This document shows positions 21,386 to 51,965 of a stretch of DNA of 64,000 nucleotides, piece after piece. Position numbers and translations under genes: made by a program. Position 1 is the stretch's first letter. Each line of letters opens with the position of its first letter. The notes beneath the pieces were generated by a model. The model made no database searches. It saw only the letters and a program-made list of their open reading frames with translations, and was not told the origin of the DNA. This DNA is from an uncultured Roseovarius sp. (lineage in GTDB: Bacteria; Pseudomonadota; Alphaproteobacteria; Rhodobacterales; Rhodobacteraceae). The stretch covers positions 1,065 through 65,064 of the forward strand of contig CAYMEC010000003.1 of NCBI GenBank assembly GCA_964389425.1. The letters are read 5' to 3'.

Positions 21386-22959
21386 GCGATGTCCAAACCG
21401 CCCCCCGCACCCGTCGCAGAGGCGCAGGGCGCGCCGCCCGTGTCGCGCAACGCGAAGCCGTTGCGCCATCTCCCGCCATCTGGCCGGGTATCCCCGGGGG
21501 CAAGTTCCTGCCACTTGAGCCACGCGATATGGAGCGGGTGCATGACGCCGCGCTCACCATTCTGGAGCGCACCGGCATTGCTGAACCGACCCCTGAATTG
21601 CTGGAGATCGTTCTGCCCAAGGGTGCGGTCTTGAAAGACGGACGGCTCTGCTTTCCGCGCGCCTTGATGGAGGATTTGCTATCGGTTGCGGCCAATGAAT
21701 ACTACGTCCACGCCCGTGGAAGTCGTACGGGGAAGGACGACATTCACTGCCGCAAGAACCACGTCTTCTTTTCCAATTCCGGCACCGCAGTTACCACGTT
21801 CGAACCCGAAACGCGAAGCTACCGCCCGTCGGTTGCAAGGGACATCTATGATTTCACGCGGCTCGTGGATGCGCTGGACAACTATCACATGCTGGGCGCG
21901 ACGGTGCTGGCGACCGATGTGCCGGATGACTTCGAACATGACATGACGCAGGTCTACGCCATGATGGCGGGCTCTGAAAAACCGGCCTGCATGTCCTTCC
22001 GCAAAGCCGAGCATATCAAACCCGCGCTGGAGATTTTCGATCTGGCCTCAGGGGGTGACGGCGCGTTCCTGAAAAAGCCTTCTGTGATTTTCGGCGGATG
22101 TCCCATCGTCTCCCCCCTGCGGTTTGGGCAGGAAAACCTCGAGACGTTGATGGAAGCCAGCCGCCTTGGCCTGACCAGCGACATCGCCGTGGCACCACAA
22201 TCAGGCGCCACTGCCCCTGCCCCGCTGGCCGGGATTCTTGCGCAGGTTGTCGCGGAGACCTTGGCCTGCGTGGCCGTCGTGAACCTGATCACGCCGGGCT
22301 GTCCTGTTTCCTTTGCCGCCTGGCCTTTCATCACCGACCTGCGCACCGGGTCCTTCACTGGCGGCAGCGGGGAACAGGCGATCCTCGCGGCGGCCGCCGT
22401 GCAGATGGGCAATTTCTATGACCTGCCCAATTCCGTGGGGTGCGGCATGACCGATGCCAAGATCCCCGATGCGCAATACGGGTTCGAAAAGGCGCTGACC
22501 TACACGCTTGCCGCCCATGCCGGGGCGAACCGTTTGTGTGAGGTGGGCGGCATGATGGGCTCTCTGATGGGGTGCAGCTTTGAATCCATGGTAATCGACA
22601 ATGACATCATCGGCGCCATAGCCCGCACCCTGCGCGGGATCGAGGTGAGCGATGATACGTTAAGCGTCGACACGATCCACGAATGCGCCACGGGCCCGGG
22701 ACACTACCTGGGGCATGGGCAGACGTTGGAGGTGATGGAATCCGAGTATGTCTATCCCACGCTGATGGATCGCGGCCCCACCGATCAGTGGGAGACCGAA
22801 GGGTCCAAAGACCTCTTTGAGCGCAGTCGGGACCGGGTGCAGGAGATCATGGAAGATCACTTTCCCAACTATCTGAGCCGCGAAGCCAGTGCCAAAATCC
22901 GGGAACGGTTTCCGATAAAACTGTCACCGGCGCACCTGAACCGGTCGCGTATCCGGTGA
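21382..22959 (+). CDS. Trimethylamine methyltransferase (MttB/MtgB superfamily), non-pyrrolysine
   Basis: Arg-rich N-terminus, SPLRF, SGATAPAPLAG, DLRTG..TGG..EQ, DAKIPDAQ.G.EK, VIDNDI; no in-frame TAG. Confidence 0.9.
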   Translation: MSDVQTAPRTRRRGAGRAARVAQREAVAPSPAIWPGIPGGKFLPLEPRDMERVHDAALTILERTGIAEPTPELLEIVLPKGAVLKDGRLCFPRALMEDLLSVAANEYYVHARGSRTGKDDIHCRKNHVFFSNSGTAVTTFEPETRSYRPSVARDIYDFTRLVDALDNYHMLGATVLATDVPDDFEHDMTQVYAMMAGSEKPACMSFRKAEHIKPALEIFDLASGGDGAFLKKPSVIFGGCPIVSPLRFGQENLETLMEASRLGLTSDIAVAPQSGATAPAPLAGILAQVVAETLACVAVVNLITPGCPVSFAAWPFITDLRTGSFTGGSGEQAILAAAAVQMGNFYDLPNSVGCGMTDAKIPDAQYGFEKALTYTLAAHAGANRLCEVGGMMGSLMGCSFESMVIDNDIIGAIARTLRGIEVSDDTLSVDTIHECATGPGHYLGHGQTLEVMESEYVYPTLMDRGPTDQWETEGSKDLFERSRDRVQEIMEDHFPNYLSREASAKIRERFPIKLSPAHLNRSRIR

Positions 22960-24221
22960 CGGCGCTCGCTCAAACCTCGTCCTTGAAATCCATCGCCTCG
23001 ATCCTGCTGTGCGTCGGGTTTCTGGTGGCGGGCAATGGGCTGTTTCAAACGCTCTTTCCCTTACGCGCGGATGCCGAAGGGTTCCCGGTCGTCGTCATCG
23101 GCTTTCTCGGCACCGCCTATTTCGCAGGCTTTGCCATCGGGTGTTTCTGGTGCCCTCGGATCATCAAGTCATCAGGGCATATTCAGGCTTTTGCGGGCGT
23201 TGCCGCGCTGACCACGGCCATATCGCTTGCGTTTCCGATCCTGCCCGATGCCTACACCTGGGCGCTTCTTCGTTTTTTGCAAGGCATTGCTTTTGCCGCA
23301 CTTTTCGTTGTCATCGAAAGCTGGCTCAACGATTGCTCGGACAATTCCAATCGCGGGCGCGTACTGTCAGGCTACATCATCGTGTCCAATCTCATGATGA
23401 TTGCAGGGCAGTTGATGATCAATCTCTACGCGGTCGAGGCAGATAAGCATTTCATTCTCGCTGGGATTTTGATCTGCCTGGCCATCGTGCCCCTCACGCT
23501 TGTACGCATCACGGCACCCACGCCGATCACCACCGCGCGGATCGATTTGCGCGCCCTCTACCGCCTGTCACCCGTGGGATTGATCGGGTGCTTCCTCGTC
23601 GGCACGGCGGAAGGTGCGTTCTGGTCACTTGGCCCGGTTTTTGCCCAGTTGCGGGAATTTGACGTGAGCGATGTGGCCTTCCTGATGGCCGCCTTTGTGC
23701 TGGGTGGCACTCTGAGCCAATGGCCACTTGGGTGGCTCAGCGACAGGGCGGATCGCCGCTATATCATTGCAGCACTTGCCTTTGGCAGCGTCTGCACGGG
23801 GCTTGTGATCGGCTATGTGGATCTGACAGGCGATGCCGCGATTTTCGCGCTAGCCGTGGCCCATGGCGCGCTCATGGTGCCGCTTTACGCCATGTGCCTC
23901 AGCCATGCCAATGACTACGCGCCGAATTCCAAAATGGTTGAAATCAGCAGCGGGCTCTTGCTGGCCTACGCCACAGGGGCTGCGCTTGGACCGGTAGTGG
24001 CCTCTGTCTTCATGGGGCCGGATGGCAGCGGACTTTTTGCGTTCATTGCCTTCGTTCTTCTGATCCTTGGTGTGTTCACCTGTTTGCGGATCGTCAGTCA
24101 CAACCGCGATTATGATTATGAGGAGCGCGCGGAGTTTGTGCCGGTGCCCAAAACCACATCCGTTGTGTTCTCGCTTGAGGAAGACGATGAGGTTGCAGCT
24201 AGCCCTCCTCCACCTGCATGA
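22956..24221 (+). CDS. MFS transporter (YcaD-like)
   Basis: About 12 hydrophobic segments, ESWLN...RG.VLS.Y and QWPLGWLSDR.DRR motifs; GTG start overlapping the mttB stop. Confidence 0.88.
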   Translation: MTALAQTSSLKSIASILLCVGFLVAGNGLFQTLFPLRADAEGFPVVVIGFLGTAYFAGFAIGCFWCPRIIKSSGHIQAFAGVAALTTAISLAFPILPDAYTWALLRFLQGIAFAALFVVIESWLNDCSDNSNRGRVLSGYIIVSNLMMIAGQLMINLYAVEADKHFILAGILICLAIVPLTLVRITAPTPITTARIDLRALYRLSPVGLIGCFLVGTAEGAFWSLGPVFAQLREFDVSDVAFLMAAFVLGGTLSQWPLGWLSDRADRRYIIAALAFGSVCTGLVIGYVDLTGDAAIFALAVAHGALMVPLYAMCLSHANDYAPNSKMVEISSGLLLAYATGAALGPVVASVFMGPDGSGLFAFIAFVLLILGVFTCLRIVSHNRDYDYEERAEFVPVPKTTSVVFSLEEDDEVAASPPPPA

Positions 24222-26304
24222 GCACATCCACCGCCAGAACGCCGTCTTCGTAGACAAAAAGCGGATTGATCTCCAGTTCGACCACCTGACCCGCTCGGGC
24301 GACCACCTGGTTCGCCAAACCGGCAAGCGCGGCCGTAACACACGCCATATCGGCCCTTGGCCCGCCCCGGAACCCGTCCAGCAGTTTCGCCACGCGCAAA
24401 ACGGCCAAGGCCCGGGCAATATCCGCCTCTGTCGCAGGTAGCAGCAGGGTGGATACGTCTTCAAGAAGCTCCACCAGCACGCCGCCACTGCCCAGGGTCA
24501 TGGACAACCCGAATTGCGGGTCGCGGCGGATCCCCACAATCAATTCGGCCAAAGGACGCGGTGCCATGGGTTCCAACAGGAACGTGTCCGTTACCGCGGT
24601 TTCAGAATATTGCGCGACCGATGCTTGCATCGTGTTTGCTGCTGTCACCAACGCGTCAGCCGTGTCTATCCCCAAGGCGACAGCCCCGGCTTCGGTTTTG
24701 TGGGCAAGCTCTGCGCCCATCATCTTCAAAGCAAGAGGATAACCCACCTTTTCCGCCGCAGAGATCAGGCCATCCACATCGGCCAAATGTCCCGCAGGGA
24801 CGGGAAACCCGGCCTCCGCCAGATATGCTTTGCCCTCCGCCTCATTCAACCTGCGGGGCGTTTGTGCCTCTGTCGTCATCACAATCGGCGGGGCGGGCGC
24901 GCCCAATATCCGAGTCCGCGCGGCCTGCCACCGCGCCGCATCCCGCATAGCGTCCAGCGTCTCATGAATGCCCTGCATCGGGGCAATGCCGCGCGCGATG
25001 AAGGCCTCTCGAATATGCGCAGGCATGTTTTCAGGGATCGTCGCGCAGATCGCAGCAGGCAGGCCCACGGAAACGGCAGCATCTGCAAAGGCATGACCAT
25101 CGTTGGTATAGAAATACTCACCCTCATCCAGACCGGGGGCGGGGTAATCCTGCACCAGAAGCGTGGCATCTGACGGGATCGTCTCCATGGCAGAGGCAAA
25201 GACCGGACGGGTGAGATCAGGCTGGCCCCAGATGGGCGTCGTGTAGTCGAGCGGGTTGCTGACCGTTGCGATGGGCGGCAGCAATTCTGTCAGGGTTTTG
25301 CGGGCTTTGTCATCAGGTTCCGGGAAGTTAAGCCCGATCACTTCGGCATAGTCCGCCAGCATCGTGGCCCCGCCGCCTGAACAGGTGAAGCCCATTATCC
25401 GCGCGCCTCTCGGCGCTCCTGAAACACAGAGGAACTTAAGAGTTTCAAGAAGTTGGGAAGGGTTGGTCACGCGGATTACGCCCAAACGGTCGAAGAGCGC
25501 GTCATACAGCGTATCTGACCCAGCCAGTGACCCAGTGTGGCTGAGCGTGAGAGTTTCACCAATGGAGGAACTGCCCGTTTTCAGCGCTACAACCGGTTTG
25601 CCCCCACGCATGGCCTTCAGCGCGGCCCGCTCAAAGGCTGACACGTCCGAGAGGCCTTCGATATGCAAACCGATCGCACGCACTTCTTCGCGTTCGCACA
25701 AAAGATCCAATAGTTCTGTCAGGCCAAGATCCGCCTGATTGCCGACAGAAGCCATATAGGCCATGGGCAAAGACCGCTGGCTCATCGTGATGTCCGACGA
25801 AAACATCCCCGACTGCGTGATGATCGCCGCACCAAAGCCGGGACAGGTGCCGCCATGGGCAAACGGCCAGAGCGCACAGTTGCCCACGTAGTTGATCAGC
25901 CCGTAGCAATTTGGACCAATCAGAACCATGTCACCCAGCGCATCCTTCAGCGCCTCTTCAAGCGCCTGACCTTCCTCATGGGCCTCCCCGAACCCGGCGG
26001 AATAACAGATGATCCCGCCCGCGCCCCGCGCCGAAAGCCCCCGGATTGTTTCCGGCACATGTTTGGCAGGGATCGCAAGGAAGACCGCATCAGGGGCTTG
26101 GGGAAGATCGTCAATGCTGGCCACGCAGGGCAACCCGGCCAGCGTATCGCGTCGTGGATTGACCACCCACATCTCGCCCTGAAACCCCGCCCGGCGCGCC
26201 TCTCCGATCGCCACGGCGGCATCTGTGCCACCGATGAAAGCGATGTGTCCGGGGTTGAGCAGCCGCTCGAAGTTTCGCCGTTTGGCAGGGGTCACGCGGG
26301 TCAC
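24199..26304 (-). CDS. NDP-forming acyl-CoA synthetase (fused alpha/beta; BcoAB-like candidate)
   Basis: N-terminal CoA-binding domain, GPNCYG, QSG, SVGNQAD, SHTG phospho-His, C-terminal ATP-grasp HKTEAG...ELEINP. Confidence 0.85.
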   Translation of the reverse strand: MTRVTPAKRRNFERLLNPGHIAFIGGTDAAVAIGEARRAGFQGEMWVVNPRRDTLAGLPCVASIDDLPQAPDAVFLAIPAKHVPETIRGLSARGAGGIICYSAGFGEAHEEGQALEEALKDALGDMVLIGPNCYGLINYVGNCALWPFAHGGTCPGFGAAIITQSGMFSSDITMSQRSLPMAYMASVGNQADLGLTELLDLLCEREEVRAIGLHIEGLSDVSAFERAALKAMRGGKPVVALKTGSSSIGETLTLSHTGSLAGSDTLYDALFDRLGVIRVTNPSQLLETLKFLCVSGAPRGARIMGFTCSGGGATMLADYAEVIGLNFPEPDDKARKTLTELLPPIATVSNPLDYTTPIWGQPDLTRPVFASAMETIPSDATLLVQDYPAPGLDEGEYFYTNDGHAFADAAVSVGLPAAICATIPENMPAHIREAFIARGIAPMQGIHETLDAMRDAARWQAARTRILGAPAPPIVMTTEAQTPRRLNEAEGKAYLAEAGFPVPAGHLADVDGLISAAEKVGYPLALKMMGAELAHKTEAGAVALGIDTADALVTAANTMQASVAQYSETAVTDTFLLEPMAPRPLAELIVGIRRDPQFGLSMTLGSGGVLVELLEDVSTLLLPATEADIARALAVLRVAKLLDGFRGGPRADMACVTAALAGLANQVVARAGQVVELEINPLFVYEDGVLAVDVLMQVEEG

Positions 26305-27461
26305 GCCCCAAGCGGGCGCAGGATCGACCGGGTGATGATATGGCGCTGAATTTCGCTGGTGCCGTCCCAGATGCGTTCGAGCCGGGAATCACGCCAAAGG
26401 CGTTGGATAGCCAGTTCTTCCATCAGCCCCATACCGCCATGGATTTGCACCGCGTCATCGGCGATCCGACCCAGTATTTCGGAACAAAACACCTTTACCA
26501 TCGCGGCATCCTGATCCGCCATCTGACCCTGCTCGTGGCGAGCCACTGCGTCATCCACCATCAGATCCGCCGCGCGCAGGTTCATCGCGCCATCCGCCAA
26601 GCGGAACCCTGTCGCCTGAAACTGACCGATAGGTTTGCCAAACTGTTTGCGGTTCGCGGCCCAGTCCGTGGCCATCTCCAGAATGCGTTCGGCCTTGCCA
26701 CAGCAGGATGCGCCGACCCAGATGCGGCCCATGCCCAGCCACTGGCCCGCAATCTCAAATCCCCGCCCCTCTTCGCCGAGGATCTTGTCCGGCCCAACGC
26801 GCACATTGTCGAAGCTGAGCGCATAGGTCTTGTAACCACGGTAACTGACGGATTTCGTTCCCTCGCGGCAATCAAACCCCTTCAGGCCCACATCCACCAG
26901 AAACGCCGTCACGCGTTTGCGTTTGCCCCTTGGCGTGTCATCCTCACCCGTCGCGGCAAAAACGATGGCAAAGTCAGGCATGCAGGGACCAGAGATGAAG
27001 TGTTTGGACCCATTGAGGATCCAGTCATCACCATCCCGCACGGCATTCGATTTCATACCCATGGCATCGGACCCGGCCTCGGGTTCGGTCAGCGCAAAAA
27101 GCTCGCGTTTGTCGCCCCGCACGCAAGGCAGCAGATACTCCTCGCGCTGGTCGCCCTCACAGGCCAGCAAAATCTCCGTCGGGCGCGCGGCCCATGCATG
27201 CAGGGCATGAGTCGTTTTGCCGTATTCACGCTCAATCAGCTTTTGCGCGCGCAGGGACACGCCGCCGCCACCAACGTCTTCGGGCAGGTTGCAGGCATAC
27301 AGGCCCAGCTCTTTCGATCGCGCTTCAATTTGGCGGCCCAAATCCTCGGGCACCTCGCCCGTGCGGTCCACCATCTCTTCATGAGGGTAGCATTCTTCCT
27401 CAAGAAACCCGCGCACAGTGGCCAGAAGCAGTTCTTCTTCGTGGGACATATGCATGTTCAT
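26301..27461 (-). CDS. Acyl-CoA dehydrogenase (BcoC-like candidate)
   Basis: FALTEPEAGSD, GSKHFIS, RKQFG, QIHGGMG, IWDGTSEIQR. Confidence 0.92.
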   Translation of the reverse strand: MNMHMSHEEELLLATVRGFLEEECYPHEEMVDRTGEVPEDLGRQIEARSKELGLYACNLPEDVGGGGVSLRAQKLIEREYGKTTHALHAWAARPTEILLACEGDQREEYLLPCVRGDKRELFALTEPEAGSDAMGMKSNAVRDGDDWILNGSKHFISGPCMPDFAIVFAATGEDDTPRGKRKRVTAFLVDVGLKGFDCREGTKSVSYRGYKTYALSFDNVRVGPDKILGEEGRGFEIAGQWLGMGRIWVGASCCGKAERILEMATDWAANRKQFGKPIGQFQATGFRLADGAMNLRAADLMVDDAVARHEQGQMADQDAAMVKVFCSEILGRIADDAVQIHGGMGLMEELAIQRLWRDSRLERIWDGTSEIQRHIITRSILRPLGA

Positions 27462-27472
27462 CGCGTGCTCCT

Positions 27473-28363
27473 CTAACTGTCCGCGCCGCGCAGACGCAGT
27501 TTGTTGCGCGCTTCTTGCGGCGTGAGGGCACGACCGCCCATGCGCTCGATGATCTCGACGACACGCGTCACAAGCTGGCCGTTGGTGGCCGGCACACCGC
27601 GATCAAGCCAGATGTTGTCCTCCAGTCCCACACGCACATTGCCACCCAGGGCGACGGCAGCAGCGGCCATCGGCATCTGCATTCGGCTGATCCCAAAACT
27701 GGCCCAGCTGGCACCGGGGGGGAGTTGGGATTTCATCGCCGACATAATCTCTACCGACTGATCCGCACCCCAAGGGATGCCGAGGCAGAGCTGGAACATA
27801 GGCGGAGCATCGATCAGACCCTCATCGACCATAGCCTTTGCAAAACGGATATGGCCCAGATCGAACACCTCAAGTTCCGGCTTCACGCCCCACTCCTGCG
27901 TCAGCGACGCCATTCGGCGCAACATGGGCGGGGTGGAGATGTAAATCTCGTCCCCATTGCCGAAATTGAGCGTCCCGCAATCGAGCGAACAGATCTCCGG
28001 CATGCATTCCTTGATATGGGCAAGGCGTTCTTCCGCGCCGATCATATCGGTGCCGGGGCCGGGCATGGCAGGATCATCGGCGGAAGGGGTCCAATCCCCG
28101 CCCATCCCGGCGGTCAGATTGATCACGACATCGGTGTCAGACGCCCGAACCAGATCCACCGCTTCCTTGAAAAGCCCTGTATCGCGGGATCCTTTGCCTG
28201 TCTCAGGGTCGCGCACATGAAGATGGGTAATGGCCGCACCGGCCTTCGCCGCCTCGATGGCCGCATCCGCAATTTGGCGCGGCGCAACCGGCACGTGCGG
28301 GTTCTTGGCAGTGGTGTCTCCCGCACCCGTCACGGCGCATGTCACGATGACATCGAAATTCAT
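27473..28363 (-). CDS. Beta-keto acid cleavage enzyme (BKACE/DUF849), CdhC-like dehydrocarnitine-cleavage type
   Basis: [32 protein letters not shown]; strongly resembles remembered Pseudomonas CdhC sequence. Confidence 0.88.
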
Positions 28364-28413
28364 GGGCTCTCTCCCTCTTGTCCCGAGTTTGGGCAGGGAT
28401 GCCGCGAATAATG

Positions 28414-28453
28414 TCGATTTTTCGCCATTGCCGATCTATAAAATGGCGATAAA
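28414..28453. promoter_or_regulatory. Inverted TCGCCATT repeats in the BKACE/GlxA divergent promoter
   Basis: TCGCCATT (28422-28429) and AATGGCGA (28442-28449) with a 12-nt spacer; TCGATTTTTCGCC (28414-28426) recurs at 34149-34161 on the minus strand. Confidence 0.6.
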
Positions 28454-28482
28454 GTTTACCAAGCGCAGGACGAGACAGGGCG

Positions 28483-29535
28483 ATGTCATCGACAGCAAAA
28501 TCAGCCGAGCCAAAGCGGATCGCCTGCATCCTGCTGCCGCGTTTCAACATGATGGGTATGGTCAGTTTGCTGGAGCCAGTTCGCATTGCCAACTACCTCT
28601 CCGAGGCGCCGCTTTACCAGCATACGTTCCACGCATCCAAGGCCGGTTCAGTTCCCGCGAGCAATGGCATGGAAATCACTTGCGATGGCCTGCCAGAGGC
28701 ACTGACACGAGATGACATCGTGTTCGTGGCGGGCAGTTGGGGGGCGGAAACCTACGATGATCCTGCGCTCTTGGCTTGGCTCAGACGGCAGGCACGGCTT
28801 GGTATCCGACTCTGCGCCCTGGAGATGGCCAGTTATGTCTTTGCCCATGCGGGATTGCTGGCGGGGCGGCAGGCGACGGCCCATTGGTCCTATCTTGCGG
28901 GGTTTCAGGAGAAATTTCCCGACATTCTGGCCGCCGAGCAGCTTTTCACCTTAGATGGCGGCATCATGACCTGCGCAGGGCTGACCGCAGCGAGTGACTT
29001 GATCTTGCATCTCATTGGGGAGGACCACGGTGCGCCACTGGTGGGGGAAATATCCGATATCATCATGCATCACCCGGTGCGCCCCGCGCAAACGCCACAA
29101 CGCAAGACCATGGGCCGCGGGGTGGAAACGCTGCCCGAAAGCGTGCAGACGGCGATTGATCTGATTGAGCGCAATATCACGGAACCGCTGCGCGTCCCGG
29201 ATATCGCCCGCGCGGTGGGTATTTCGCAACGCCAGTTGGAACGACAGTTCAACCAGACCATCGGTTGCTCGGTTGTGCAGTTCGGAATGCTGCTCAGGCT
29301 GCAACACGCGCGGGTTCTGCTGATTTCCACGGATCTCAGCGTACGGGAGATCTCAGCCGCGTCAGGGTTCAATTCGCTGTCGCATTTTGCCTATGCGTTC
29401 CGAAAATGCTTTGACCGGCGGCCCAGTGAATACCGGCACGCCTGGCCGGATGGCGAGGACGCACCGAGTTGGCCGGGGACATTGGCAAAGTATCTCGATA
29501 CGCTTCAGGTCAACCAGCGGGTGCGGGGAGACTAA
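28483..29535 (+). CDS. GlxA-family AraC regulator (DJ-1/PfpI sensor + HTH; CdhR/GbdR-like)
   Basis: LEPVRIAN, GLLAGRQATAHW, TCAG, C-terminal SQRQLERQF...SGFNSLSHFAYAFR. Confidence 0.92.
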   Translation: MSSTAKSAEPKRIACILLPRFNMMGMVSLLEPVRIANYLSEAPLYQHTFHASKAGSVPASNGMEITCDGLPEALTRDDIVFVAGSWGAETYDDPALLAWLRRQARLGIRLCALEMASYVFAHAGLLAGRQATAHWSYLAGFQEKFPDILAAEQLFTLDGGIMTCAGLTAASDLILHLIGEDHGAPLVGEISDIIMHHPVRPAQTPQRKTMGRGVETLPESVQTAIDLIERNITEPLRVPDIARAVGISQRQLERQFNQTIGCSVVQFGMLLRLQHARVLLISTDLSVREISAASGFNSLSHFAYAFRKCFDRRPSEYRHAWPDGEDAPSWPGTLAKYLDTLQVNQRVRGD

Positions 29536-29652
29536 AGTGTCACGACGGCGCAGGTTCAAGGCCATTGGGGCACCCCGCCTTTGTCCACTGCCCGATGGAC
29601 GATTGCTTGCAACCGCTGAGAGGTGGGTCCCACCCAAGCCATGGCAAAGCCG

Positions 29653-30597
29653 CTATGTCGTATCCCACACGGCCTTCAGAACGGCCACGATTTTTCGATC
29701 CCGTTCGGCGGCCATATCCTCAAAATGCCGCTCACCCGCCATGACATTGCAGCCATCAACCATACGGTCGCGCAGTTCCTGCGTCAGTTCGGGCGCCTCC
29801 AGCCGCGTCCAGGGCCATTTGAGCGCGGGGCCGAATTGGTCAAGGTTCGTGGCCATGCCCCCCTCTCCACAGGCCACATGAAACGCCATGCACTGGCCCT
29901 GTACCACCATGCGGGGCGCCGGGCCGTTTCTGAGCGCGATGTCGATATCCTCGGGCGTCGCCTCCCCATTGGCGACCATGTGGAGCGCCTCGCGCCAAAG
30001 CGCCTCTTGCAGGCGGGTCCCGACGAAACCGGGGACTTCCTTTTTCATCACCAGCGGGGCCTTGCCCGCGATCTCATAAAAGCGCGCAGCCCAGTCTACG
30101 GCCTCCGGCGCGGTTGTCTTCCCGCCCACGATTTCCACCAGCGGCAACAGGTATGGCGGGTTGAACGGGTGCCCGATCACGCAGCGTTCGGGTGTGGGAC
30201 ACGTGGCTTGTATCTCCGTCATGGTGAGACCGGAGGTAGAGGACCCGATGATAATCTCGGGGGGCAGGATCGCGCCCATCCGGGCGTAGAGGTCCTGTTT
30301 GATCTCCACCCGCTCCGGCCCGCTTTCCTGCACGAACTCCGCGTCCTCCAACGCCTCTTCCAGATCGCTGGTCACGGTCAGTCGGTCAAGCGACGCATCC
30401 GGCGCAAGACCCAATTCCGTCAAGCTGCGCCAACCCGTTTCGATCACCGCCATCAGGGCATCGTGTTCCGCCGCATCGTGGATATAGGCCGTCACATCAT
30501 AGCCCCGCGCCAGAAAATGCGCCGTCCAACCGCCCCCGATAGGGCCCGCGCCAAGGCTGGCTACGCGGGTGATCGAGTGTGGATCGCAATACATCAT
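29653..30597 (-). CDS. 3-hydroxyacyl-CoA/carnitine 3-dehydrogenase family (CdhA/LcdH-like), no fused thioesterase
   Basis: LGAGPIG Rossmann motif, QESGPE, SSTSG, GHPFNPPYLLPLVE, LWREALH, QFGPAL..PWT; start at 30597 overlaps the caiD stop. Confidence 0.87.
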   Translation of the reverse strand: MMYCDPHSITRVASLGAGPIGGGWTAHFLARGYDVTAYIHDAAEHDALMAVIETGWRSLTELGLAPDASLDRLTVTSDLEEALEDAEFVQESGPERVEIKQDLYARMGAILPPEIIIGSSTSGLTMTEIQATCPTPERCVIGHPFNPPYLLPLVEIVGGKTTAPEAVDWAARFYEIAGKAPLVMKKEVPGFVGTRLQEALWREALHMVANGEATPEDIDIALRNGPAPRMVVQGQCMAFHVACGEGGMATNLDQFGPALKWPWTRLEAPELTQELRDRMVDGCNVMAGERHFEDMAAERDRKIVAVLKAVWDTT

Positions 30598-31397
30598 TCG
30601 CCCTTGAAGTTGGGTTCGCGCTTTTCGACGAAAGCCGCCACACCCTCGGCCGCGTCTTCGGATTTCAGCATCTTGCGGTAGATTGGCATCGGATCGGTGC
30701 GCATCTTTTGGAAGGCCTCCTCCAATGGATGGCACTCGATCTCGCGTTGCACCTCTTTCACCGATTGCATGGCCAGCGGCGCGGACCACGCGATAGACGC
30801 GGCCCATTCGCGCGCGGCGTCTATGAGGTCTTCTTTCGGAACGATCTTGTTGACCAGCCCGTAATGGGCGGCCTCACTCGCGGTCATGCGACGGCCCAGC
30901 AGGAACATCTCCATCGCGATGTTATGGGGGATGCGGCGAGGAAGGCGTTGCAGCGCGCCTGCATCGGGTACAATCCCAAGCGGCATTTCCGGCAGACCAA
31001 ATTCCACATGCTCTGACGCGATCAACAAATCACAAGCCATCGCCATCTCGAACCCACCGCCAATGGCCAATCCATTGATCGCGGCAATGACTGGTTTGTT
31101 GAGCGCCCAATTCTCCGTCAGACCGGTGAACCCACCAAACCCGTAGTCATCGCTTTCCCACCAGTTATCGAGCTGCATCTCGCCCGAATTAAGCGCCTTT
31201 AGATCCCAGCCGGCCGAGAAAATCTTTTCCCCGCCGCCGGTCAGGATGGCGCAGCGCAGGTCTTTGTCTTCATGCAATTCCTGAAATGCCGCCGCCAGCG
31301 CCCGCGAGGTGGGCACGTCGATTGCGTTCACCTTACCCCGTTCCAGCGTGACCTCCAGTACATGGCCGTCACGGACCACCTTCACACCGTCAGACAT
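30594..31397 (-). CDS. caiD: Carnitinyl-CoA dehydratase / crotonobetainyl-CoA hydratase
   Basis: NAID..TS, FSAGWDLKA, GF.GLTE, GGGFE, LPE..LGIVPD; closely matches remembered E. coli CaiD. Confidence 0.85.
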   Translation of the reverse strand: MSDGVKVVRDGHVLEVTLERGKVNAIDVPTSRALAAAFQELHEDKDLRCAILTGGGEKIFSAGWDLKALNSGEMQLDNWWESDDYGFGGFTGLTENWALNKPVIAAINGLAIGGGFEMAMACDLLIASEHVEFGLPEMPLGIVPDAGALQRLPRRIPHNIAMEMFLLGRRMTASEAAHYGLVNKIVPKEDLIDAAREWAASIAWSAPLAMQSVKEVQREIECHPLEEAFQKMRTDPMPIYRKMLKSEDAAEGVAAFVEKREPNFKGE

Positions 31398-31406
31398 GGT
31401 TTTCTC

Positions 31407-32441
31407 CTATTGAAAGGCGGGCATCACTTCGTCGCAGAAAAGCCGCATCGAGCGTTTCTGCGCGTCCAGATCAAGGCCCATTGAGGCATAGTAGATGAAC
31501 TCGTCTACCCCCAGCGCCTCATAGCGTTTGAGTTTTTCGATCACCCGATCAGGGGAGCCAAAGAGCAGGTTTTCTTCAAGCATGTCCGGGTCGTATTGCT
31601 CGCGGCCTGCCAGCTCTTCCAGCGGGATTTGCGCGGGGAAGCCGTTCGTCACGCCGCCTGCATTGCGGAACAGGTTTTCAAACTGGCCGAGCACCAGCCG
31701 AATGGCATCGATGGCCTTCCGCCGGTCGCCTTCATTGTCATAGACAGCGGCGTGACGCATCATCGCAAACGTCGGACGAAATCCGTTCCCGGCCTTCTCC
31801 ACCGCCTCATCCAGTTGTTTCTTGTAAAGCTCTGCCTCCGAAAAGGGGCGCGTCAGGGGCCAGCTCATCACGTGGCATTTTTCGCGCAGCGCGTAATCAT
31901 AGGTGATCGGCGACCGGGCCGCGACCCAGACGGGGATGTCTTGCTGAAGCGGTTTGGGGCAGGAGGTAGAACTGGGAAACTGCCAGAACTGTCCGTCATG
32001 CGCGTAATCGCCCTGCCAAAGTGCGCGCACGGCAGGCAGCATTTCCTGCATGTATTGCCATGCATCCGATTGCTTGAGTCCCGGGCGCATACGGTCAAAT
32101 TCACGTTGGTAAGCACCCGACCCGATGCCAAACTCCAGCCGCCCATCGCTGAGCAGATCCAGCATCGCGGCCTCACCGGCTAGGTTGATCGGGTGCCAAT
32201 AGGCCGCCGTCGCCACGGCTGTCCCCAGACGGATCGTATCGGTGTGTTCCGCCCACCATGTGAGCAACTGAAATGGATTGGGGGCAATCGTCATTTCCAG
32301 CGCGTGGTGTTCTGCGGCCCAGACGATGTTGAACCCGCCCTCTTCGGCCATCTGCACCATCTCCAGCGTGTGATCGCGGACGGCGCGCATGTCGGTCGCG
32401 TCATTCATGCGCTCCAGATTCACGGCAAGTTGGAACTTCAT
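31407..32441 (-). CDS. LLM-class flavin monooxygenase, TgnB-like
   Basis: W..EHH..E.TIAPNPF, WHPINLAGEAAM, GDYAHDG.FW.FP..TS.PKP.Q, YEALG.DE, VMPAF; these match my recollection of the trigonelline oxygenase TgnB family. Confidence 0.82.
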   Translation of the reverse strand: MKFQLAVNLERMNDATDMRAVRDHTLEMVQMAEEGGFNIVWAAEHHALEMTIAPNPFQLLTWWAEHTDTIRLGTAVATAAYWHPINLAGEAAMLDLLSDGRLEFGIGSGAYQREFDRMRPGLKQSDAWQYMQEMLPAVRALWQGDYAHDGQFWQFPSSTSCPKPLQQDIPVWVAARSPITYDYALREKCHVMSWPLTRPFSEAELYKKQLDEAVEKAGNGFRPTFAMMRHAAVYDNEGDRRKAIDAIRLVLGQFENLFRNAGGVTNGFPAQIPLEELAGREQYDPDMLEENLLFGSPDRVIEKLKRYEALGVDEFIYYASMGLDLDAQKRSMRLFCDEVMPAFQ

Positions 32442-32468
32442 CGCGTTCTCCTTTATCGGCCCCGCCCC

Positions 32469-33950
32469 TCAGCGCATCACGAACGGATTGGCCATCGGCT
32501 CGTCCGAGGTGTTCATCCAGACCGTCTTGGGGCGCGTGTAATCATACATCGCCTGGAACCCGCTTTCGCGGCCATAGCCCGATCCCTTGATCCCGCCGAA
32601 CTCGGCGATGGGGGAGACAACGCGGTACGTGTTCACCCAAACGATCCCGGCGCGCACCGCGCTCGACATACGCAAGCTCCGCGCGCTGTCACGGGTAAAG
32701 ATGCCCGCGGCCAGCCCGTGTTCGGTGTCATTTGCCAGTGCCAACGCCTCATCTTCGGTCTTGAACCGTTGCACGCACAAGACAGGGCCGAAAAGCTCGG
32801 TATCCACGATGCGCAAATCCTGCCGGGGGCAGGACAGGATCGTGGGTTCAAAAAACAGCCCCTCCATCCCCTCGGGGCGTTTGCCACCGGTCAGGATGTC
32901 CGCGCCTTCTTCCTGCGCAAAGGCCAATTCGCGTTCGATCATATCCCGCTGGCCGGTGGTACAAAGCGGTCCCATCTGCGTTTCTTCCAGCAGCGGGTCC
33001 CCGATCTTGATCTCCTTGGCCTGCGCCACCATCCGCGCAAGAAACTCGTCGGCGATATCGTCATGCAGATAAAGCCGCGAACCGGCCACACAGCTTTGCC
33101 CGGTAGCGCCGAAGATGCCAGCAATGGAGGCATTGACCGCGCTTTCGATATTGGCGTCCTCGAAGACGATGAAGGGGGATTTGCCGCCCAGCTCGAGGCT
33201 GACTTCGGCAAAATTGTTCTTGGAGTTTTCCAGCACATGGCGGGCCGCGCCCGGCCCCCCGGTAAAGGAGATGCGCGACACCAGCTTGTGCCCCGTCAAC
33301 GCCCGGCCACAAGGGTCGCCATGGCCTGTGACGATGTTCACCACGCCGGGCGGGATGCCCGCCTCTTCAATCAGTTGGGCAAACTCCAGCATCGCGGCTG
33401 AGGCATGTTCAGAGGCTTTGATGACAATCGTGTTGCCCGCCGCAAGCGCGGGGCCAACCTTCACGGCCACCAAGAAAAGCTGGCTGTTCCATGGCACGAT
33501 GGCGGCCACAACGCCCAGCGGTTCACGCTTGGTAAAGACAAACAGATCAGGTTTGTCGATGGGCAGGGTTTCACCGCTGACTTTATCGGCACAGCCTGCG
33601 TAGAAATGGAAAAACTCGGCGATGTATTTGGCCTGCCAACGGGTTTCCTTGAGCATCTTGCCGGTATCGATCGTTTCCGTACGGCCCAGATCCTCTGACC
33701 GGTCCGCCAGCAGATCGCCCAGACGGCGCAGATGTTTGCCGCGCTCTGACGGGGTCATCCTGGACCATGGGCCAGTCGTGAACGCCTCGTGGGCGGCACG
33801 AACAGCGCGGTCGACATCGGCCTCGGTCGCCTCGGGCACCCGTGACCAGACCTGACCGGTGGCAGGATTGACGCTGTCGAAAGTTGCGCCGTCCGAGGCA
33901 TCCACCCATTCGCCATTGATCAGCATCTGATAGGTTTGGATTTTGTTCAT
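32469..33950 (-). CDS. Aldehyde dehydrogenase, TgnC-like
   Basis: LELGGKSP (Glu) and GQSCVAG (Cys); LPIDK, VPWNSQLFL.AVKVGPALAAG and FTGGP are shared with remembered TgnC. Confidence 0.88.
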   Translation of the reverse strand: MNKIQTYQMLINGEWVDASDGATFDSVNPATGQVWSRVPEATEADVDRAVRAAHEAFTTGPWSRMTPSERGKHLRRLGDLLADRSEDLGRTETIDTGKMLKETRWQAKYIAEFFHFYAGCADKVSGETLPIDKPDLFVFTKREPLGVVAAIVPWNSQLFLVAVKVGPALAAGNTIVIKASEHASAAMLEFAQLIEEAGIPPGVVNIVTGHGDPCGRALTGHKLVSRISFTGGPGAARHVLENSKNNFAEVSLELGGKSPFIVFEDANIESAVNASIAGIFGATGQSCVAGSRLYLHDDIADEFLARMVAQAKEIKIGDPLLEETQMGPLCTTGQRDMIERELAFAQEEGADILTGGKRPEGMEGLFFEPTILSCPRQDLRIVDTELFGPVLCVQRFKTEDEALALANDTEHGLAAGIFTRDSARSLRMSSAVRAGIVWVNTYRVVSPIAEFGGIKGSGYGRESGFQAMYDYTRPKTVWMNTSDEPMANPFVMR

Positions 33951-34005
33951 CCGTCAGCCCCCTGTGTTTTACAGTGTCCATCTTTGGGTGATCTTGCGCG
34001 CTTGC

Positions 34006-34042
34006 ATGCATTTTTTCGACTCTTTTTGGCGAAAAAATGCAT
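34006..34042. promoter_or_regulatory. 13-bp perfect inverted repeat upstream of the ALDH operon
   Basis: ATGCATTTTTTCG (34006-34018) and CGAAAAAATGCAT (34030-34042) with an 11-nt spacer. Confidence 0.6.
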
Positions 34043-34118
34043 CATTGGTCAGAACATCCGCCGCGCTCCAATCTGTGCTATTCTGGGATTGGAGGGATAT
34101 GGTGCCAGATACCGTTGT

Positions 34119-34161
34119 GCGAAATTTCGCCATTAAACCCGGTCACGCGGCGAAAAATCGA
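34119..34161. promoter_or_regulatory. TTTCGCC motifs upstream of the binding-protein gene
   Basis: Palindrome GCGAAATTTCGC (34119-34130) followed by CATT; GGCGAAAAATCGA (34149-34161). Confidence 0.55.
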
Positions 34162-34219
34162 AAGTGAGGCTGGCGAACCGACCGCTTACTTGAAATCATA
34201 GAACAACAGGGAGTGAAAG

Positions 34220-35833
34220 ATGACACGCACAGTCGACCAACAGGTCCTAGACCGCATCATTGCGGCGGGCCGCAGGCGCGGGATTACACGCCGTTCATTC
34301 GTGGCCCATGCCACGGTTGCAGGCCTGACTGTTCCGGCCGCAACGGGGCTTTGGACAAGCAAGGTTTCCGCCCAGACCCCCAGCCAGGGCGGGACGTTCC
34401 GCGTGGCGGTGCAGGATGCCAACACATCCGATACCCATGACCCGGGTCAATATCTTTCCGTCTTCATGATCCAGTTGGCCCATTGTTCACGCAGCTACCT
34501 GTGCGCGATCGAACCCGATGGCAGCCTTGGTCCGGATATGGCGGACAGCTGGTCGGCATCACCCGATGCAAAGCTCTGGACGTTTGAACTCAATCAGAAC
34601 GCCAGCTTCCATGATGGGCGCAAGTTTACCTCCAAGGATGCGATGGCCTCTATCAAGCATCACTTGGGTGAAGACAGCACTTCGGCAGCCAAGTCACTGC
34701 TGACCAATGTGGTGGATGTGCGCGCCGATGGCGACTTCACCATGGTGATCGAGCTGGATCAGGGCCTGGCCGATCTGCCCTACATCCTGACCGATTACCA
34801 CATTGCGATGGTGCCCGCCGATGGCGACGGCAACGCCGATTGGGAAGGCGGTATTGGAGCCGGGCCGTATCGGATCACTTCTTTCAATCCCGGCGTCGGC
34901 GCCGAGCTTGTGAAGCATGACGGCTGGCACGGCGAAGGCGCGTGGTTCGATGCGGTCAATCTTGTGGCGATCAACGACCCCAACGCACGACAAAGCGCGA
35001 TCATCGCGGGCGATGTGGATGCCAATACGTCTGTCGAATATCGCACCTTCCAGCGTTTGGAACAGAACCCCAATATCGAGGTGCTCAACCTGCCCTCAGG
35101 CTCGGCTATCACCTGCCCCATGCATGTCGATAAATCGCCCTTCAGCGACAACAATGTGCGCATGGCGATGAAGCTGGCGATGGACCGCGATGAGATCAAC
35201 GAAAAGATCTTCTTCAACGCAGGCACCGTGGGCAATGACTTCCACATCTCACCCAACATGCCCTACTACCCCGAAGGCATCGAACAGCGGACCTATGACC
35301 CCGATAAGGCAAAGTGGCACCTCAAGCAGGCCGGCATGGACAGCCTTGAGACGAACATGTCCGCCTCGGATTCCGTGCAACCGGGCGCGGTGGATTTCGT
35401 CACGCTCTATTCGGAACAAGCCAAGGCCGCAGGCATCAACATCACGCCGGTGCGTGAATCGGGTGATGGTTACTGGGCCGATGTCTGGCTGAAGAAGCCC
35501 TTCATGTTCTCCTCTTGGGGCGGACGTCCCACGCCGGATGTGATCTTCTCGCTGGCTTATCAGACGGGTGCGGCGTGGTCAGAAGCGTTCTGGTCCAACG
35601 AGCGGTTCGATGAGCTTCTCTTGCAGGCCAAGGCGGAACTTGACGACACGTTGCGCGCGGAGATGTATCGCGAAATGTGCATGATCGCCCGTGACGATGG
35701 AGGGTCCATCGTTCCTCACTTCACCAACTACGTCTATGCACATCTGACGAATGTGGGCCGCCCCGATGTGGTCGGCAACACGTGGGAACTTGACGGCGCC
35801 CGCGGCTATCAGCGCTGGTGGTTCAAGACCTGA
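34220..35833 (+). CDS. ABC transporter family-5 (DppA/OppA-like) substrate-binding protein with Tat signal
   Basis: TRRSFV twin-arginine motif, PDMADSW, FHDG..FT..D, GAGPY, DGGSIVP; no permease or ATPase adjacent. Confidence 0.9.
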   Translation: MTRTVDQQVLDRIIAAGRRRGITRRSFVAHATVAGLTVPAATGLWTSKVSAQTPSQGGTFRVAVQDANTSDTHDPGQYLSVFMIQLAHCSRSYLCAIEPDGSLGPDMADSWSASPDAKLWTFELNQNASFHDGRKFTSKDAMASIKHHLGEDSTSAAKSLLTNVVDVRADGDFTMVIELDQGLADLPYILTDYHIAMVPADGDGNADWEGGIGAGPYRITSFNPGVGAELVKHDGWHGEGAWFDAVNLVAINDPNARQSAIIAGDVDANTSVEYRTFQRLEQNPNIEVLNLPSGSAITCPMHVDKSPFSDNNVRMAMKLAMDRDEINEKIFFNAGTVGNDFHISPNMPYYPEGIEQRTYDPDKAKWHLKQAGMDSLETNMSASDSVQPGAVDFVTLYSEQAKAAGINITPVRESGDGYWADVWLKKPFMFSSWGGRPTPDVIFSLAYQTGAAWSEAFWSNERFDELLLQAKAELDDTLRAEMYREMCMIARDDGGSIVPHFTNYVYAHLTNVGRPDVVGNTWELDGARGYQRWWFKT

Positions 35834-35847
35834 CCACTGGACTTTCG

Positions 35848-35873
35848 CGGGCGGTGCCATAAGGTCCCGCCCG
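35848..35873. terminator. Hairpin downstream of the binding-protein gene
   Basis: CGGGCGG / CCGCCCG 7-bp stem with a 12-nt loop and no strong U-tract; may be an mRNA stabiliser or attenuator. Confidence 0.35.
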
Positions 35874-35901
35874 TATTGCATCTACCTGAAAGTTGAAGCG
35901 A

Positions 35902-36690
35902 ATGCCCACGGCGCCCGACGGCACGGCCTATGAGATATCTGGCGCACCGGATGGTCCCAATGTGGTGCTGATCCACGGGCTGGGCCTGAACCAAGACTGC
36001 TGGCAATGGACGATCCCGGCGCTCGTGGATCGGTTTCGCATTCTAAGCTATGACCTCTACGGGCATGGGGCCTCGGCGAACCCACCAGAGACACCGTCTT
36101 TGAGCCTGTTTTCCCGCCAGTTACAGACTCTAATGGATCATTGCCGCATGCCATCTGGAGCGATCGTCGGCTTTTCACTGGGCGGCATGATTGCGCGACG
36201 TTTTGCGCAGGACGCGCCCGAAAGATGCAGGGCCTTGGCGATCCTGCATTCTCCCCATCAACGTACGCCCAAGGCCCAAGCAGCCATTCTGGCCCGGGTG
36301 GAACAGGCCAAGGAAGACGGCTCTGCCGCAACGGTCGAGGCCGCATTGAAACGGTGGTTCACGGACTCTTTCCGCATCGCTAATCCAGACGTGATGGATA
36401 CTGTGCGCCATTGGGTACTGGCCAATCGCAAAGACGTCTACCACACGATCTACCGCGTGTTGGCCGACGGCGTGGATGAAATCACAACACCCACGCCCGC
36501 AATCACATGCCCGACATTGGTGATCACGGGGGATGAGGATTACGGCAATGGTCCCGAAATGACCCACGCGATTGCGGCGGAAATTGAAGGGTCGGAGACG
36601 GTGATCCTGCCTGGCCTGCGACACATGGCACTGGCAGAAGACCCAGAGGCGATCAATGCGCCGCTGCGCAAGTTTTTGAACGCCGTTTGA
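35902..36690 (+). CDS. Alpha/beta hydrolase, TgnD/PcaD-like
   Basis: LIHGLGLN, YDLYGHG, GFSLGG nucleophile elbow, AAL.RWF, TGDED, RHM. Confidence 0.85.
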   Translation: MPTAPDGTAYEISGAPDGPNVVLIHGLGLNQDCWQWTIPALVDRFRILSYDLYGHGASANPPETPSLSLFSRQLQTLMDHCRMPSGAIVGFSLGGMIARRFAQDAPERCRALAILHSPHQRTPKAQAAILARVEQAKEDGSAATVEAALKRWFTDSFRIANPDVMDTVRHWVLANRKDVYHTIYRVLADGVDEITTPTPAITCPTLVITGDEDYGNGPEMTHAIAAEIEGSETVILPGLRHMALAEDPEAINAPLRKFLNAV

Positions 36691-38612: not shown

Positions 38613-38628
38613 GGCTTGGAACCTGATT

Positions 38629-38646
38629 TATCTGTGATCACAGATA
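38629..38646. promoter_or_regulatory. Putative GntR operator
   Basis: Perfect 18-bp palindrome TATCTGTGATCACAGATA in the 77-bp divergent gap. Confidence 0.75.
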
Positions 38647-38689
38647 TGCTACGCAGGTCACAAATGCAAGCAATGCCACGGAGACGGAC

Positions 38690-40312: not shown

Positions 40313-40341
40313 AGGCCCCTGCCCCAATAAAGGAATAACAC

Positions 40342-50849: not shown

Positions 50850-50984
50850 TATCTTCAAAATCCGAATTATCAATCCAAAATTACGTGGTTTTTATACGGA
50901 ACACCAGAAGACATATAGGCTCTGTCAGTGCGATAGATGACAGCCATCACCGTCTGTATTGATGCGACGACAAGGATAGAACTC

Positions 50985-51950: not shown

Positions 51951-51965
51951 AAAAGGACTCATCTG

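Follow-up and report, generated by a model that had tools for sequence, protein, structure and literature searches.

The bacterial routes closest to the system described here act on trigonelline, on carnitine and its relatives, and on homarine. The trigonelline cluster tgnFDABC(-P-E) has reportedly been described in Acinetobacter baylyi ADP1, where TgnB is said to cleave the N-ring between C5 and C6, after which an aldehyde dehydrogenase (ALDH) acts. For gamma-butyrobetaine, the bco/cdh pathway of Sinorhizobium meliloti reportedly leads through carnitine to glycine betaine. Carnitine genes have been described in Pseudomonas aeruginosa as cdhCAB, with the regulator CdhR (PMC5806209), and the homarine operon homABCDER encodes an FAD-binding HomA, HomB, a peptidase-like HomC and an ALDH-like HomD, with neither a luciferase-like FMN-dependent monooxygenase (LLM) nor a beta-keto acid cleavage enzyme (BKACE) (PMC13236597). 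Here, a 64,000-nt window from an uncultured Roseovarius sp. is analyzed (contig CAYMEC010000003.1, C3 below, of a 3.7-Mb genome, G000, that is ~90% complete), in which relatives of trigonelline (Tgn) enzymes and of carnitine enzymes are interleaved between positions 24199 and 36690. This region is a catabolic island, uncharacterized and widespread among marine bacteria, that combines enzymes of known kinds. An initial annotation of the window, made from the letters alone, knew of no pathway combining the two sets, and no published description of the combined island was found in the literature searched. Pathways are known for trigonelline and homarine, but none is known for this third system, whose full form comprises at least 11 conserved genes.

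The tgn cluster and the island share the same oxygenase, dehydrogenase and hydrolase families, with a TgnA-like reductase and a TgnF-like AA_synth protein encoded in sister islands. However, the island has another gene order, a GlxA-type regulator, CaiD-like and L-carnitine-dehydrogenase-like (LcdH-like) genes within its operon, and membership in a separate orthogroup. Similarly, an ADP-forming ligase, an acyl-CoA dehydrogenase (ACAD), a crotonase, a free-acid 3-hydroxy dehydrogenase, BKACE and a GATase1-AraC regulator are families common to the island and the butyrobetaine/carnitine pathway, but the island members are paralogous, fall below equivalog cut-offs, come without a thioesterase and are always accompanied by a Tgn-like LLM. 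The cai operon of Escherichia coli (CaiA, CaiB, CaiD) provides the model that best matches the island hydratase (CaiD), and a family III CoA-transferase occurs in sister islands; the island differs in its aerobic context with BKACE, and the sister-island CoA-transferase is nearer to mesaconate/glutarate types than to CaiB. The Rut pyrimidine pathway (RutA LLM, RutF reductase, RutD alpha/beta hydrolase and RutC of the RidA family) follows the same logic, in that an LLM opens an N-heterocycle before a hydrolase and a RidA-type protein act, and the RutD and RutF models give weak matches; the kinship is only distant, and Rut has no ALDH or CoA module. The homarine operon, also a marine N-methylpyridinium betaine pathway of the same taxa, was rejected as the identity of the island, as the enzyme families differ.

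Gene content and enzyme kinship

All ten genes named in the initial annotation were recovered, at the same positions and with the same families, by open reading frame (ORF) listing and by Pfam and NCBIfam profile scans of the window proteins. Two operons lie on the minus strand. One runs from the ALDH gene (32469-33950, 493 aa; Pfam Aldedh, with the catalytic LELGG Glu and GQSC Cys) through the LLM gene (31407-32441, 344 aa; Pfam Bac_luciferase) and a CaiD-like enoyl-CoA hydratase gene (30594-31397, 267 aa; Pfam ECH_1, with both crotonase Glu motifs, GGGFEMA and GLPEM) to an LcdH-like 3-hydroxyacid dehydrogenase gene (29653-30597, 314 aa; Pfam 3HCDH_N and 3HCDH). The dehydrogenase ORF is open to 30807; its start is corrected here to the ATG at 30597 because of the ATGA overlap with the hydratase stop and the 314-aa length of orthologues. 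The other operon encodes BKACE (27473-28363, 296 aa; Pfam BKACE at 335 bits over the full length, HxH metal motif at residue 47), ACAD (26301-27461, 386 aa; three Pfam ACAD domains, catalytic-Glu region GTSEIQ) and, as its last gene, an ADP-forming (NDP-forming) acyl-CoA synthetase, hereafter the ligase (24199-26304, 701 aa; Pfam CoA_binding_2, Succ_CoA_lig and ATP-grasp_5). The intra-operon gaps of -4, 11, -4, 9 and 27 nt amount to tight coupling, the ligase gene overlapping the ACAD gene by 4 nt. On the plus strand, a GlxA/GbdR/CdhR-type AraC regulator gene (28483-29535, 350 aa) is divergent from BKACE; an alpha/beta-fold hydrolase gene (35893-36690, 265 aa; Pfam Abhydrolase_1/6, GFSLG nucleophile elbow at residue 93) and the gene of a Tat-exported binding protein complete the set. 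Catalytic motifs are intact in ALDH, ACAD, hydratase, hydrolase and BKACE. Inside the island, Pfam and NCBIfam scans found no flavin reductase, TgnF-like protein or thioesterase, no island protein reached an NCBIfam equivalog cut-off, and no riboswitch appeared in an Rfam scan. Scans for sigma-70 promoters and for terminators did no better than on shuffles.

A plasmid cluster of Acinetobacter junii, syntenic with one on S. meliloti pSymA, was used as the Tgn yardstick. It is a valid one because NCBI names its proteins as trigonelline enzymes, namely the oxygenase and reductase components of a flavin-dependent trigonelline monooxygenase and a (Z)-2-((N-methylformamido)methylene)-5-hydroxybutyrolactone (MFMB) dehydrogenase. 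In tblastn searches against plasmids, relatives of the window LLM fell into three tiers, and these two clusters, ordered AA_synth, hydrolase, reductase, LLM, ALDH, belong to the ~39% tier. The window LLM is 39.2% identical to A. junii TgnB, the ALDH 53.5% to A. junii TgnC and 55.3% to S. meliloti TgnC, and the hydrolase 28.9% to A. junii TgnD (E 2e-33). Between Acinetobacter and Sinorhizobium, the Tgn proteins themselves are 71% (TgnB), 72% (TgnC) and 51% (TgnD) identical. The paralogue type on plasmid pAt of Agrobacterium fabrum shows 47.7% identity to the window LLM.

The LLM tree resolves a separate clade of 66 rows (support 98/97) beside the TgnB clade and the A. fabrum pAt type, far from the remaining LLMs that the genome encodes. 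The window ALDH falls in a sister clade of TgnC (support at least 95), not within the TgnC clade; other ALDHs of the genome are at most 39% identical to the window protein. Judged by these identities and clades, membership of the LLM in the TgnB orthogroup and of the ALDH in the TgnC orthogroup was ruled out; at the sequence level, TgnB and TgnC have no nearer known relatives than these two proteins, which are not their orthologues. The tree gives the hydrolase, 60-74% identical to its island orthologues, no settled place relative to TgnD, which sits on a long branch, and the best NCBIfam match of the hydrolase is a 3-oxoadipate enol-lactonase model (165 bits, cut-off 256). The Tgn-family signatures initially ascribed to all three enzymes therefore stand for LLM and ALDH, as well-supported sister clades, and are weak for the hydrolase. 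Among NCBIfam models, no Tgn model matches the LLM, and those scoring best for ALDH describe betaine-aldehyde dehydrogenases (494 bits, below the cut-off). A protein homology search with the LLM returned generic names only among the matches listed, its best match to a solved structure is 7BIP, with an E value of just 2e-24, and no close solved structure was found for the Tgn-like proteins. The TgnA reductase, TgnF and the F-D-A-B-C gene order are not present in the window. In the genome, the only flavin reductase is a generic 162-aa protein on contig C122, and the single AA_synth gene adjoins a paralogous LLM on contig C78. This C78 locus (L082, C78:5847-8618) is a three-gene unit without ALDH or hydrolase, composed of a GbcA-like Rieske oxygenase, an island-type LLM (69%) and the AA_synth/TgnF-like gene (62% to S. 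meliloti TgnF).

The carnitine-type enzymes are likewise relatives of known ones. The dehydrogenase scores 315.9 bits against NF005471 (L-carnitine dehydrogenase, cut-off 414), and the best NCBIfam match of the hydratase is NF002936, crotonobetainyl-CoA hydratase, at 297 bits (cut-off 500); these scores rule out either protein as an equivalog-level carnitine enzyme. A canonical cluster is found on contig C4 of the same genome, with BKACE, SDR, a dehydrogenase::thioesterase, an NMO-family protein, ACAD, ligase and hydratase, and its dehydrogenase passes the NCBIfam carnitine 3-dehydrogenase model NF005716 (632.8 bits, cut-off 592). The window proteins are 39% (ligase), 45% (hydratase), 52% (ACAD) and 54% (BKACE) identical to their C4 paralogues; the ACAD is 77% identical to the island orthologue of Parasedimentitalea marina. 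The hotdog thioesterase domain carried by the C4 dehydrogenase is absent from the island in the Pfam scan. Because it is only 39-54% identical to the C4 set, the window set is regarded as a paralogous system, and comparison of the sequences suggests that it probably serves another substrate than the canonical cluster. The window BKACE matches the family model and has the metal-ligand motif, from which membership in the family, and not specificity for dehydrocarnitine, may be read. In the C4 locus (L081, C4:33000-42500), the SDR gene and a nitronate-monooxygenase/FabK-like gene sit between the BKACE, dehydrogenase::thioesterase and ACAD genes.

Co-occurrence, island variants and operator sites

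Members of the LLM orthogroup (66-91% identity) turned up in the genomes of 80 species, from Rhodobacterales, SAR116, marine Acidimicrobiia and Gammaproteobacteria. Cultured carriers of the island are Roseovarius conchicola 2305UL8-3, R. aestuarii KCTC 22174, Ruegeria alba 1NDH52C, Parasedimentitalea marina W43 and Pseudogemmobacter humi CIP 111625. Marine sequence data contain the orthogroup very frequently: in a protein search with the LLM, more than 4,000 proteins among 8,000 candidates scored reached E <= 1e-10; the best 120 matches listed were at least 81% identical, with one cluster on 210 contigs and at least one match from Tara Oceans. Locus counts were made on the 52 loci with at least 18 kb of sequence. 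ALDH is present in 40 of these, hydratase and dehydrogenase adjoin in 31, and BKACE and ACAD occur in 24. At the genome level, among 401 Rhodobacterales genomes, 28 have the island-type LLM and 10 the island-type dehydrogenase, each of these 10 belonging to the 28 (Fisher 5e-13). The reverse dependence fails, as 18 genomes carry the island-type LLM without the island-type dehydrogenase. Co-occurrence of the two gene sets, an expectation of the initial annotation, is therefore frequent and asymmetric, and the carnitine-type set depends on the LLM. TgnB-type LLMs occur in ~92 of the 401 genomes; 2 of these also have the island type, where 6.4 would be expected (P = 0.025, without phylogenetic correction). 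A mutual exclusion of the two types was considered; it looked complete in 151 genera and broke down in the larger sample, in which genomes G491 and G182 each contain a complete tgnFDABC cluster together with a complete island. Genome G485, of the same genus as the window, has three Tgn-like systems.

Several forms of the island can be distinguished. In the commonest full form, one part encodes AA_synth, a CoA-transferase::flavin reductase fusion, hydrolase and RidA; divergent from it are ALDH, LLM, hydratase and dehydrogenase; and a third part consists of the GlxA regulator with BKACE, an ABC importer, ACAD and sometimes the ligase. The window represents a slimmer ligase type, without reductase fusion, AA_synth, RidA and importer. 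The fusion of these sister islands joins a TgnA-like reductase to a family III CoA-transferase that is closest to mesaconate/glutarate types (432 bits, vs 134 for CaiB). In full islands, the ABC binding protein is similar to Atu4243, which binds GABA (4EQ7/4EUO; E 3.5e-52). Among ligase-type islands, 5 of 11 genomes have no island-type hydrolase anywhere in the genome. There is also a stand-alone form (L031, L065), in which AA_synth, reductase, hydrolase and RidA are divergent from ALDH-LLM, with a GlxA regulator. In Roseovarius sp. ZX-A-9, an arginase-family ureohydrolase and a PotD/F-like ABC importer are encoded immediately upstream of this minimal Tgn-like set (L031:161-5066), and these neighbours may link it to guanidino or polyamine compounds. 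Rieske genes stand between ALDH and LLM in five loci (L010, L026, L038, L041, L055).

Two further contexts of Tgn-like LLMs deserve description. One combines LysR, ALDH, LLM, (AA_synth), hydrolase, an Xsc-like thiamine diphosphate (ThDP) enzyme and CMD, and occurs in SAR116, Acidimicrobiia and Rhodobacterales, including some Roseovarius; it is another uncharacterized Tgn-like system. Its ThDP enzyme (L035:7526-14018, L039:7560-14726, L048) is nearest to sulfoacetaldehyde acetyltransferase (423 bits, cut-off 620). A third Tgn-like type, found in A. fabrum C58 (L084, pAt 214-230 kb) and in G485 (L092, contig C5), adjoins proXWV and includes reductase, ALDH, LLM, hydrolase, CMD, NIPSNAP, AA_synth and glyoxylate/hydroxypyruvate reductase genes; its LLM is 48% identical to the window LLM and 41% to TgnB.

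The two operons of the window also have regulatory sites in common. The exact sequence TTTTCGCCA occurs twice in the 64 kb, once in each divergent promoter, and the promoter motif initially noticed in both operons was recovered as a TTTTCGCCA-type operator kept across genera. The nonamer alone, with one mismatch allowed, is not clearly enriched (31 matches, 19 +/- 4.5 expected). A wide dyad, T[TA]TCG[CA]C-N13-18-G[GT]CGA[TA]A, has 4 matches in the 3.7-Mb genome, two of which are in island promoters: TTTCGCCA-N16-TGGCGATA at 28420-28451 in the divergent BKACE/regulator promoter, and TTTCGCCA-N15-CGGCGAAA at 34125-34155 in the ALDH/binding-protein intergenic region, nearer to the binding-protein gene. 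Across the 80 related loci (1.35 Mb), this wide dyad has 12 matches, 8 of them in BKACE or ALDH/LLM promoter windows, and it lies upstream of BKACE in 7 loci. A tight dyad, TTTTTTCGACTCTTTTTGGCGAAAAAA, is located at 34011-34037 in the divergent ALDH/binding-protein promoter, and its core TTTTCG.CA-N5-TG.CGA recurs in 19 loci belonging to several genera, at a distance of ~70 nt upstream of ALDH. The strict expression for the tight dyad misses the variant of the window itself, and therefore no genome-wide specificity is claimed for it. Altogether, the conserved sites make action of a single regulator on both promoters well supported as a prediction, and we infer that the adjacent GlxA-type protein is that regulator. 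It has the architecture of a GATase1-like sensor (Pfam DJ-1_PfpI) together with an AraC helix-turn-helix (HTH_18), its best NCBIfam match is GbdR (235 bits, cut-off 480), and it occupies the same position in 28 of the 52 well-flanked loci. Regulator and conserved operator together would offer a ready biosensor for the inducer.

A candidate route and its alternatives

The reading preferred here, to which we give a probability of roughly 0.4, is that the island forms one GlxA/GbdR-type regulon for a single composite route, acting on a cationic N-heterocycle that is neither trigonelline nor carnitine. The substrate would probably be a betaine of the pyridinium or cyclic-iminium type. A single pathway is argued for because the two sets are interleaved in the operons, share one operator, are tied by one-sided dependence and, in sister islands, by the fusion of reductase and CoA-transferase, which in itself suggests one pathway. 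In the proposed route, the TgnB-like LLM, with FMNH2 from a reductase encoded elsewhere, would cleave the ring next to the nitrogen to give an N-formyl aldehyde, which the TgnC-like ALDH would oxidize to an acid. Cleavage between C5 and C6 of any six-membered N-ring would yield a 4-(N-formyl-N-alkylamino)but(en)oate, whose N-C-C-C-COOH skeleton would be that of gamma-butyrobetaine and crotonobetaine. The acid would be activated by the ADP-forming ligase or, in sister islands, by the reductase-fused CoA-transferase, whose mesaconate/glutarate type fits an acid made by ring cleavage. ACAD would then desaturate or isomerize the thioester and the CaiD-like enzyme would hydrate it, after which release as a free 3-hydroxy acid would allow oxidation by the LcdH-like dehydrogenase. 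The island might dispense with a thioesterase because the ADP-forming ligase, reversible in principle, could also release the 3-hydroxy acid. With acetyl-CoA, BKACE would give acetoacetate and an N-formyl-N-alkyl-glycyl-CoA, from which the alpha/beta hydrolase would remove the formyl or the thioester group.

Sequence data alone do not decide the order of these steps. Ring opening first is slightly favoured, because TgnB-type cleavage followed by ALDH, as in the established chemistry of the Tgn enzymes, would leave on the nitrogen a four-carbon acid of the kind used by butyrobetaine/carnitine enzymes. Hydratase and dehydrogenase are encoded with ALDH and LLM in a single, tightly coupled operon, and the product of ALDH would be the natural substrate of the ligase. 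That ligase-type islands often consist of LLM, ALDH and the CoA module without hydrolase is counted for this order as well. Several observations weigh on the other side. The stand-alone Tgn-like core of L031 and L065 suggests that the core can finish alone and that the CoA module could be an upstream funnel, while the GABA-binding-like protein of full islands fits an imported 4-onium-butyrate. Hydrolase-less islands coexist with a second cluster that has a related hydrolase (5/5, vs 2/6; p = 0.06), the 55% identity of ALDH to TgnC hints at a lactol, formed with a ring 3-carboxylate, that would keep this carbon from being oxidized, and near the island there is no flavin reductase, the genome, 90% complete, having one generic 162-aa protein of this kind.

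Many of the same observations would suit the model of the initial annotation, in which an imported heteroaromatic or onium butyrate, analogous to gamma-butyrobetaine, is shortened by two carbons through ligase, ACAD, hydratase, dehydrogenase and BKACE before LLM, ALDH and hydrolase open the ring. The Tgn-like core alone with the same regulator type, which also occurs in L028, makes the CoA module look like an add-on funnel, the carnitine-type set is never without the LLM, and the hydrolase seems to be needed, a related one being found elsewhere in genomes whose island is without it. However, ligase-type islands keep LLM and ALDH and often drop hydrolase, reductase, RidA and AA_synth, ALDH-LLM stands directly upstream of the hydratase and dehydrogenase genes, and among natural heteroaromatic betaines none with an N- or C-linked 3-carboxypropyl group is known to abound in seawater; shortening of the side chain first is considered rather unlikely. 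Two separate pathways under one regulator, one for a carnitine/butyrobetaine analogue and one for a trigonelline analogue, which the joint presence of the two compounds in algal exudate would have brought together, are judged quite unlikely. LLM-ALDH modules without CoA genes do exist, as in the LysR-ALDH-LLM-hydrolase-ThDP-CMD cluster, as do Rieske-LLM-AA_synth units, LLMs of different contexts are intermixed in the tree, and the surrounding window is rich in betaine genes, but interleaving in single operons, the reductase-CoA-transferase fusion and the one-sided dependence (10/10) speak against this reading.

The LLM might also cleave a C-N, C-O or C-S bond oxidatively without opening a ring, giving an omega-onium aldehyde that ALDH would convert to a butyrobetaine-like acid for the CoA module. 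Such a route would have the same topology as the preferred one, and it would agree with the betaine-aldehyde dehydrogenase models that score best for ALDH and with the GbcA-like Rieske oxygenases between ALDH and LLM of some islands. It is decidedly improbable in view of the relatives of all five of TgnA, TgnB, TgnC, TgnD and TgnF carried by full and minimal islands, and of TgnB being by far the nearest characterized relative of the LLM. Finally, the halves of the island could simply be a second trigonelline system and a second carnitine/butyrobetaine system. The genome of the window has no TgnB-type cluster, and the low coincidence of island-type and TgnB-type LLMs would agree with shared substrates. 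Yet TgnB is conserved at 71% across classes, against 39% for the window LLM, G491 and G182 contain both the tgn cluster and the island in complete form, contig C4 of the window genome carries a canonical carnitine cluster, and no island enzyme reaches an equivalog cut-off. Comparative data of this kind make the handling of plain carnitine and plain trigonelline by the two halves, an outcome that the initial annotation had set against its own proposal, very unlikely.

The composite-pathway interpretation of the initial annotation is partly supported: it gains from the Tgn kinship of LLM and ALDH, from co-occurrence and from the disfavouring of plain substrates, and is weakened on the side of the hydrolase, whose kinship to TgnD is slight. 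A more specific form of the ring-opening-first route is somewhat doubtful, namely that, by a previously undescribed logic, a probably abundant marine N-heterocyclic betaine would be turned into an N-formyl-aminobut(en)oate mimicking butyrobetaine or crotonobetaine and then into an N-substituted glycine and acetoacetate. If this were true, identification of the substrate would bring a new metabolite sink into the marine carbon and nitrogen cycles and would delimit at least three parallel Tgn-like systems, of the TgnB, A. fabrum pAt and island types. The substrate, once found, would put a name to part of the labile dissolved organic nitrogen on which dominant bacterioplankton draw, and would show how ring-opening and BKACE chemistry combine.

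Binding protein and neighbouring genes

The binding protein of the window is a Tat-exported family-5 solute-binding protein (34220-35833, plus strand, 537 aa; Pfam SBP_bac_5), divergent from ALDH, with a TRRSFV twin-arginine motif and the TIGR01409 Tat signal. No permease genes lie beside it, and only the closest relatives (L001-L003 and L009) have an orthologue adjoining the island. Four paralogues with 45-54% identity are encoded on contigs C7, C21, C39 and C27 of the genome; the one on C7 adjoins another GlxA-type regulator, and the one on C39 is near another ThDP enzyme. No solved homologue was found at E 1e-30 or better.

Further genes lie on either side of the island. TetR, TMADH-like, MttB and MFS genes and an AruH/AruI-like pair were considered as island members and rejected, since they are not kept beside the LLM in the 80 loci. 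In the segment 18574-24221, three translationally coupled genes, which encode a TMADH/OYE-like flavoprotein (689 aa), an MttB-family methyltransferase and an MFS transporter, diverge from the gene of a TetR/BetI-type regulator, and the MFS gene overlaps the island ligase gene convergently by 23 nt. Within the non-pyrrolysine MttB-family gene (21382-22959), an Rfam match to PYLIS_3, the pyrrolysine insertion sequence of mttB, was recorded at 22447-22546 on the plus strand (46 bits, gathering score 38). It is probably coding-sequence homology and not a functional element.

Downstream of the hydrolase gene, at 37518-41535, the genes of a ThDP enzyme and, after it, an AcmB-like serine hydrolase of the beta-lactamase fold diverge from that of a HisC-like aminotransferase. 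The ThDP enzyme passes the NCBIfam subfamily cut-off for 5-guanidino-2-oxopentanoate decarboxylase (648 bits, cut-off 500), and the whole looks like an arginine-transaminase-type (AruH/AruI) module. It is not kept with the island, with the exception of the serine hydrolase in L001 and L019. Farther on, a DUF1989-GcvT fusion protein (774 aa) is encoded beside a proVWX-type importer at 43732-46056, and at 50937-52754 a second LLM, unrelated to the first, and an SDR are encoded divergently from a LysR regulator.

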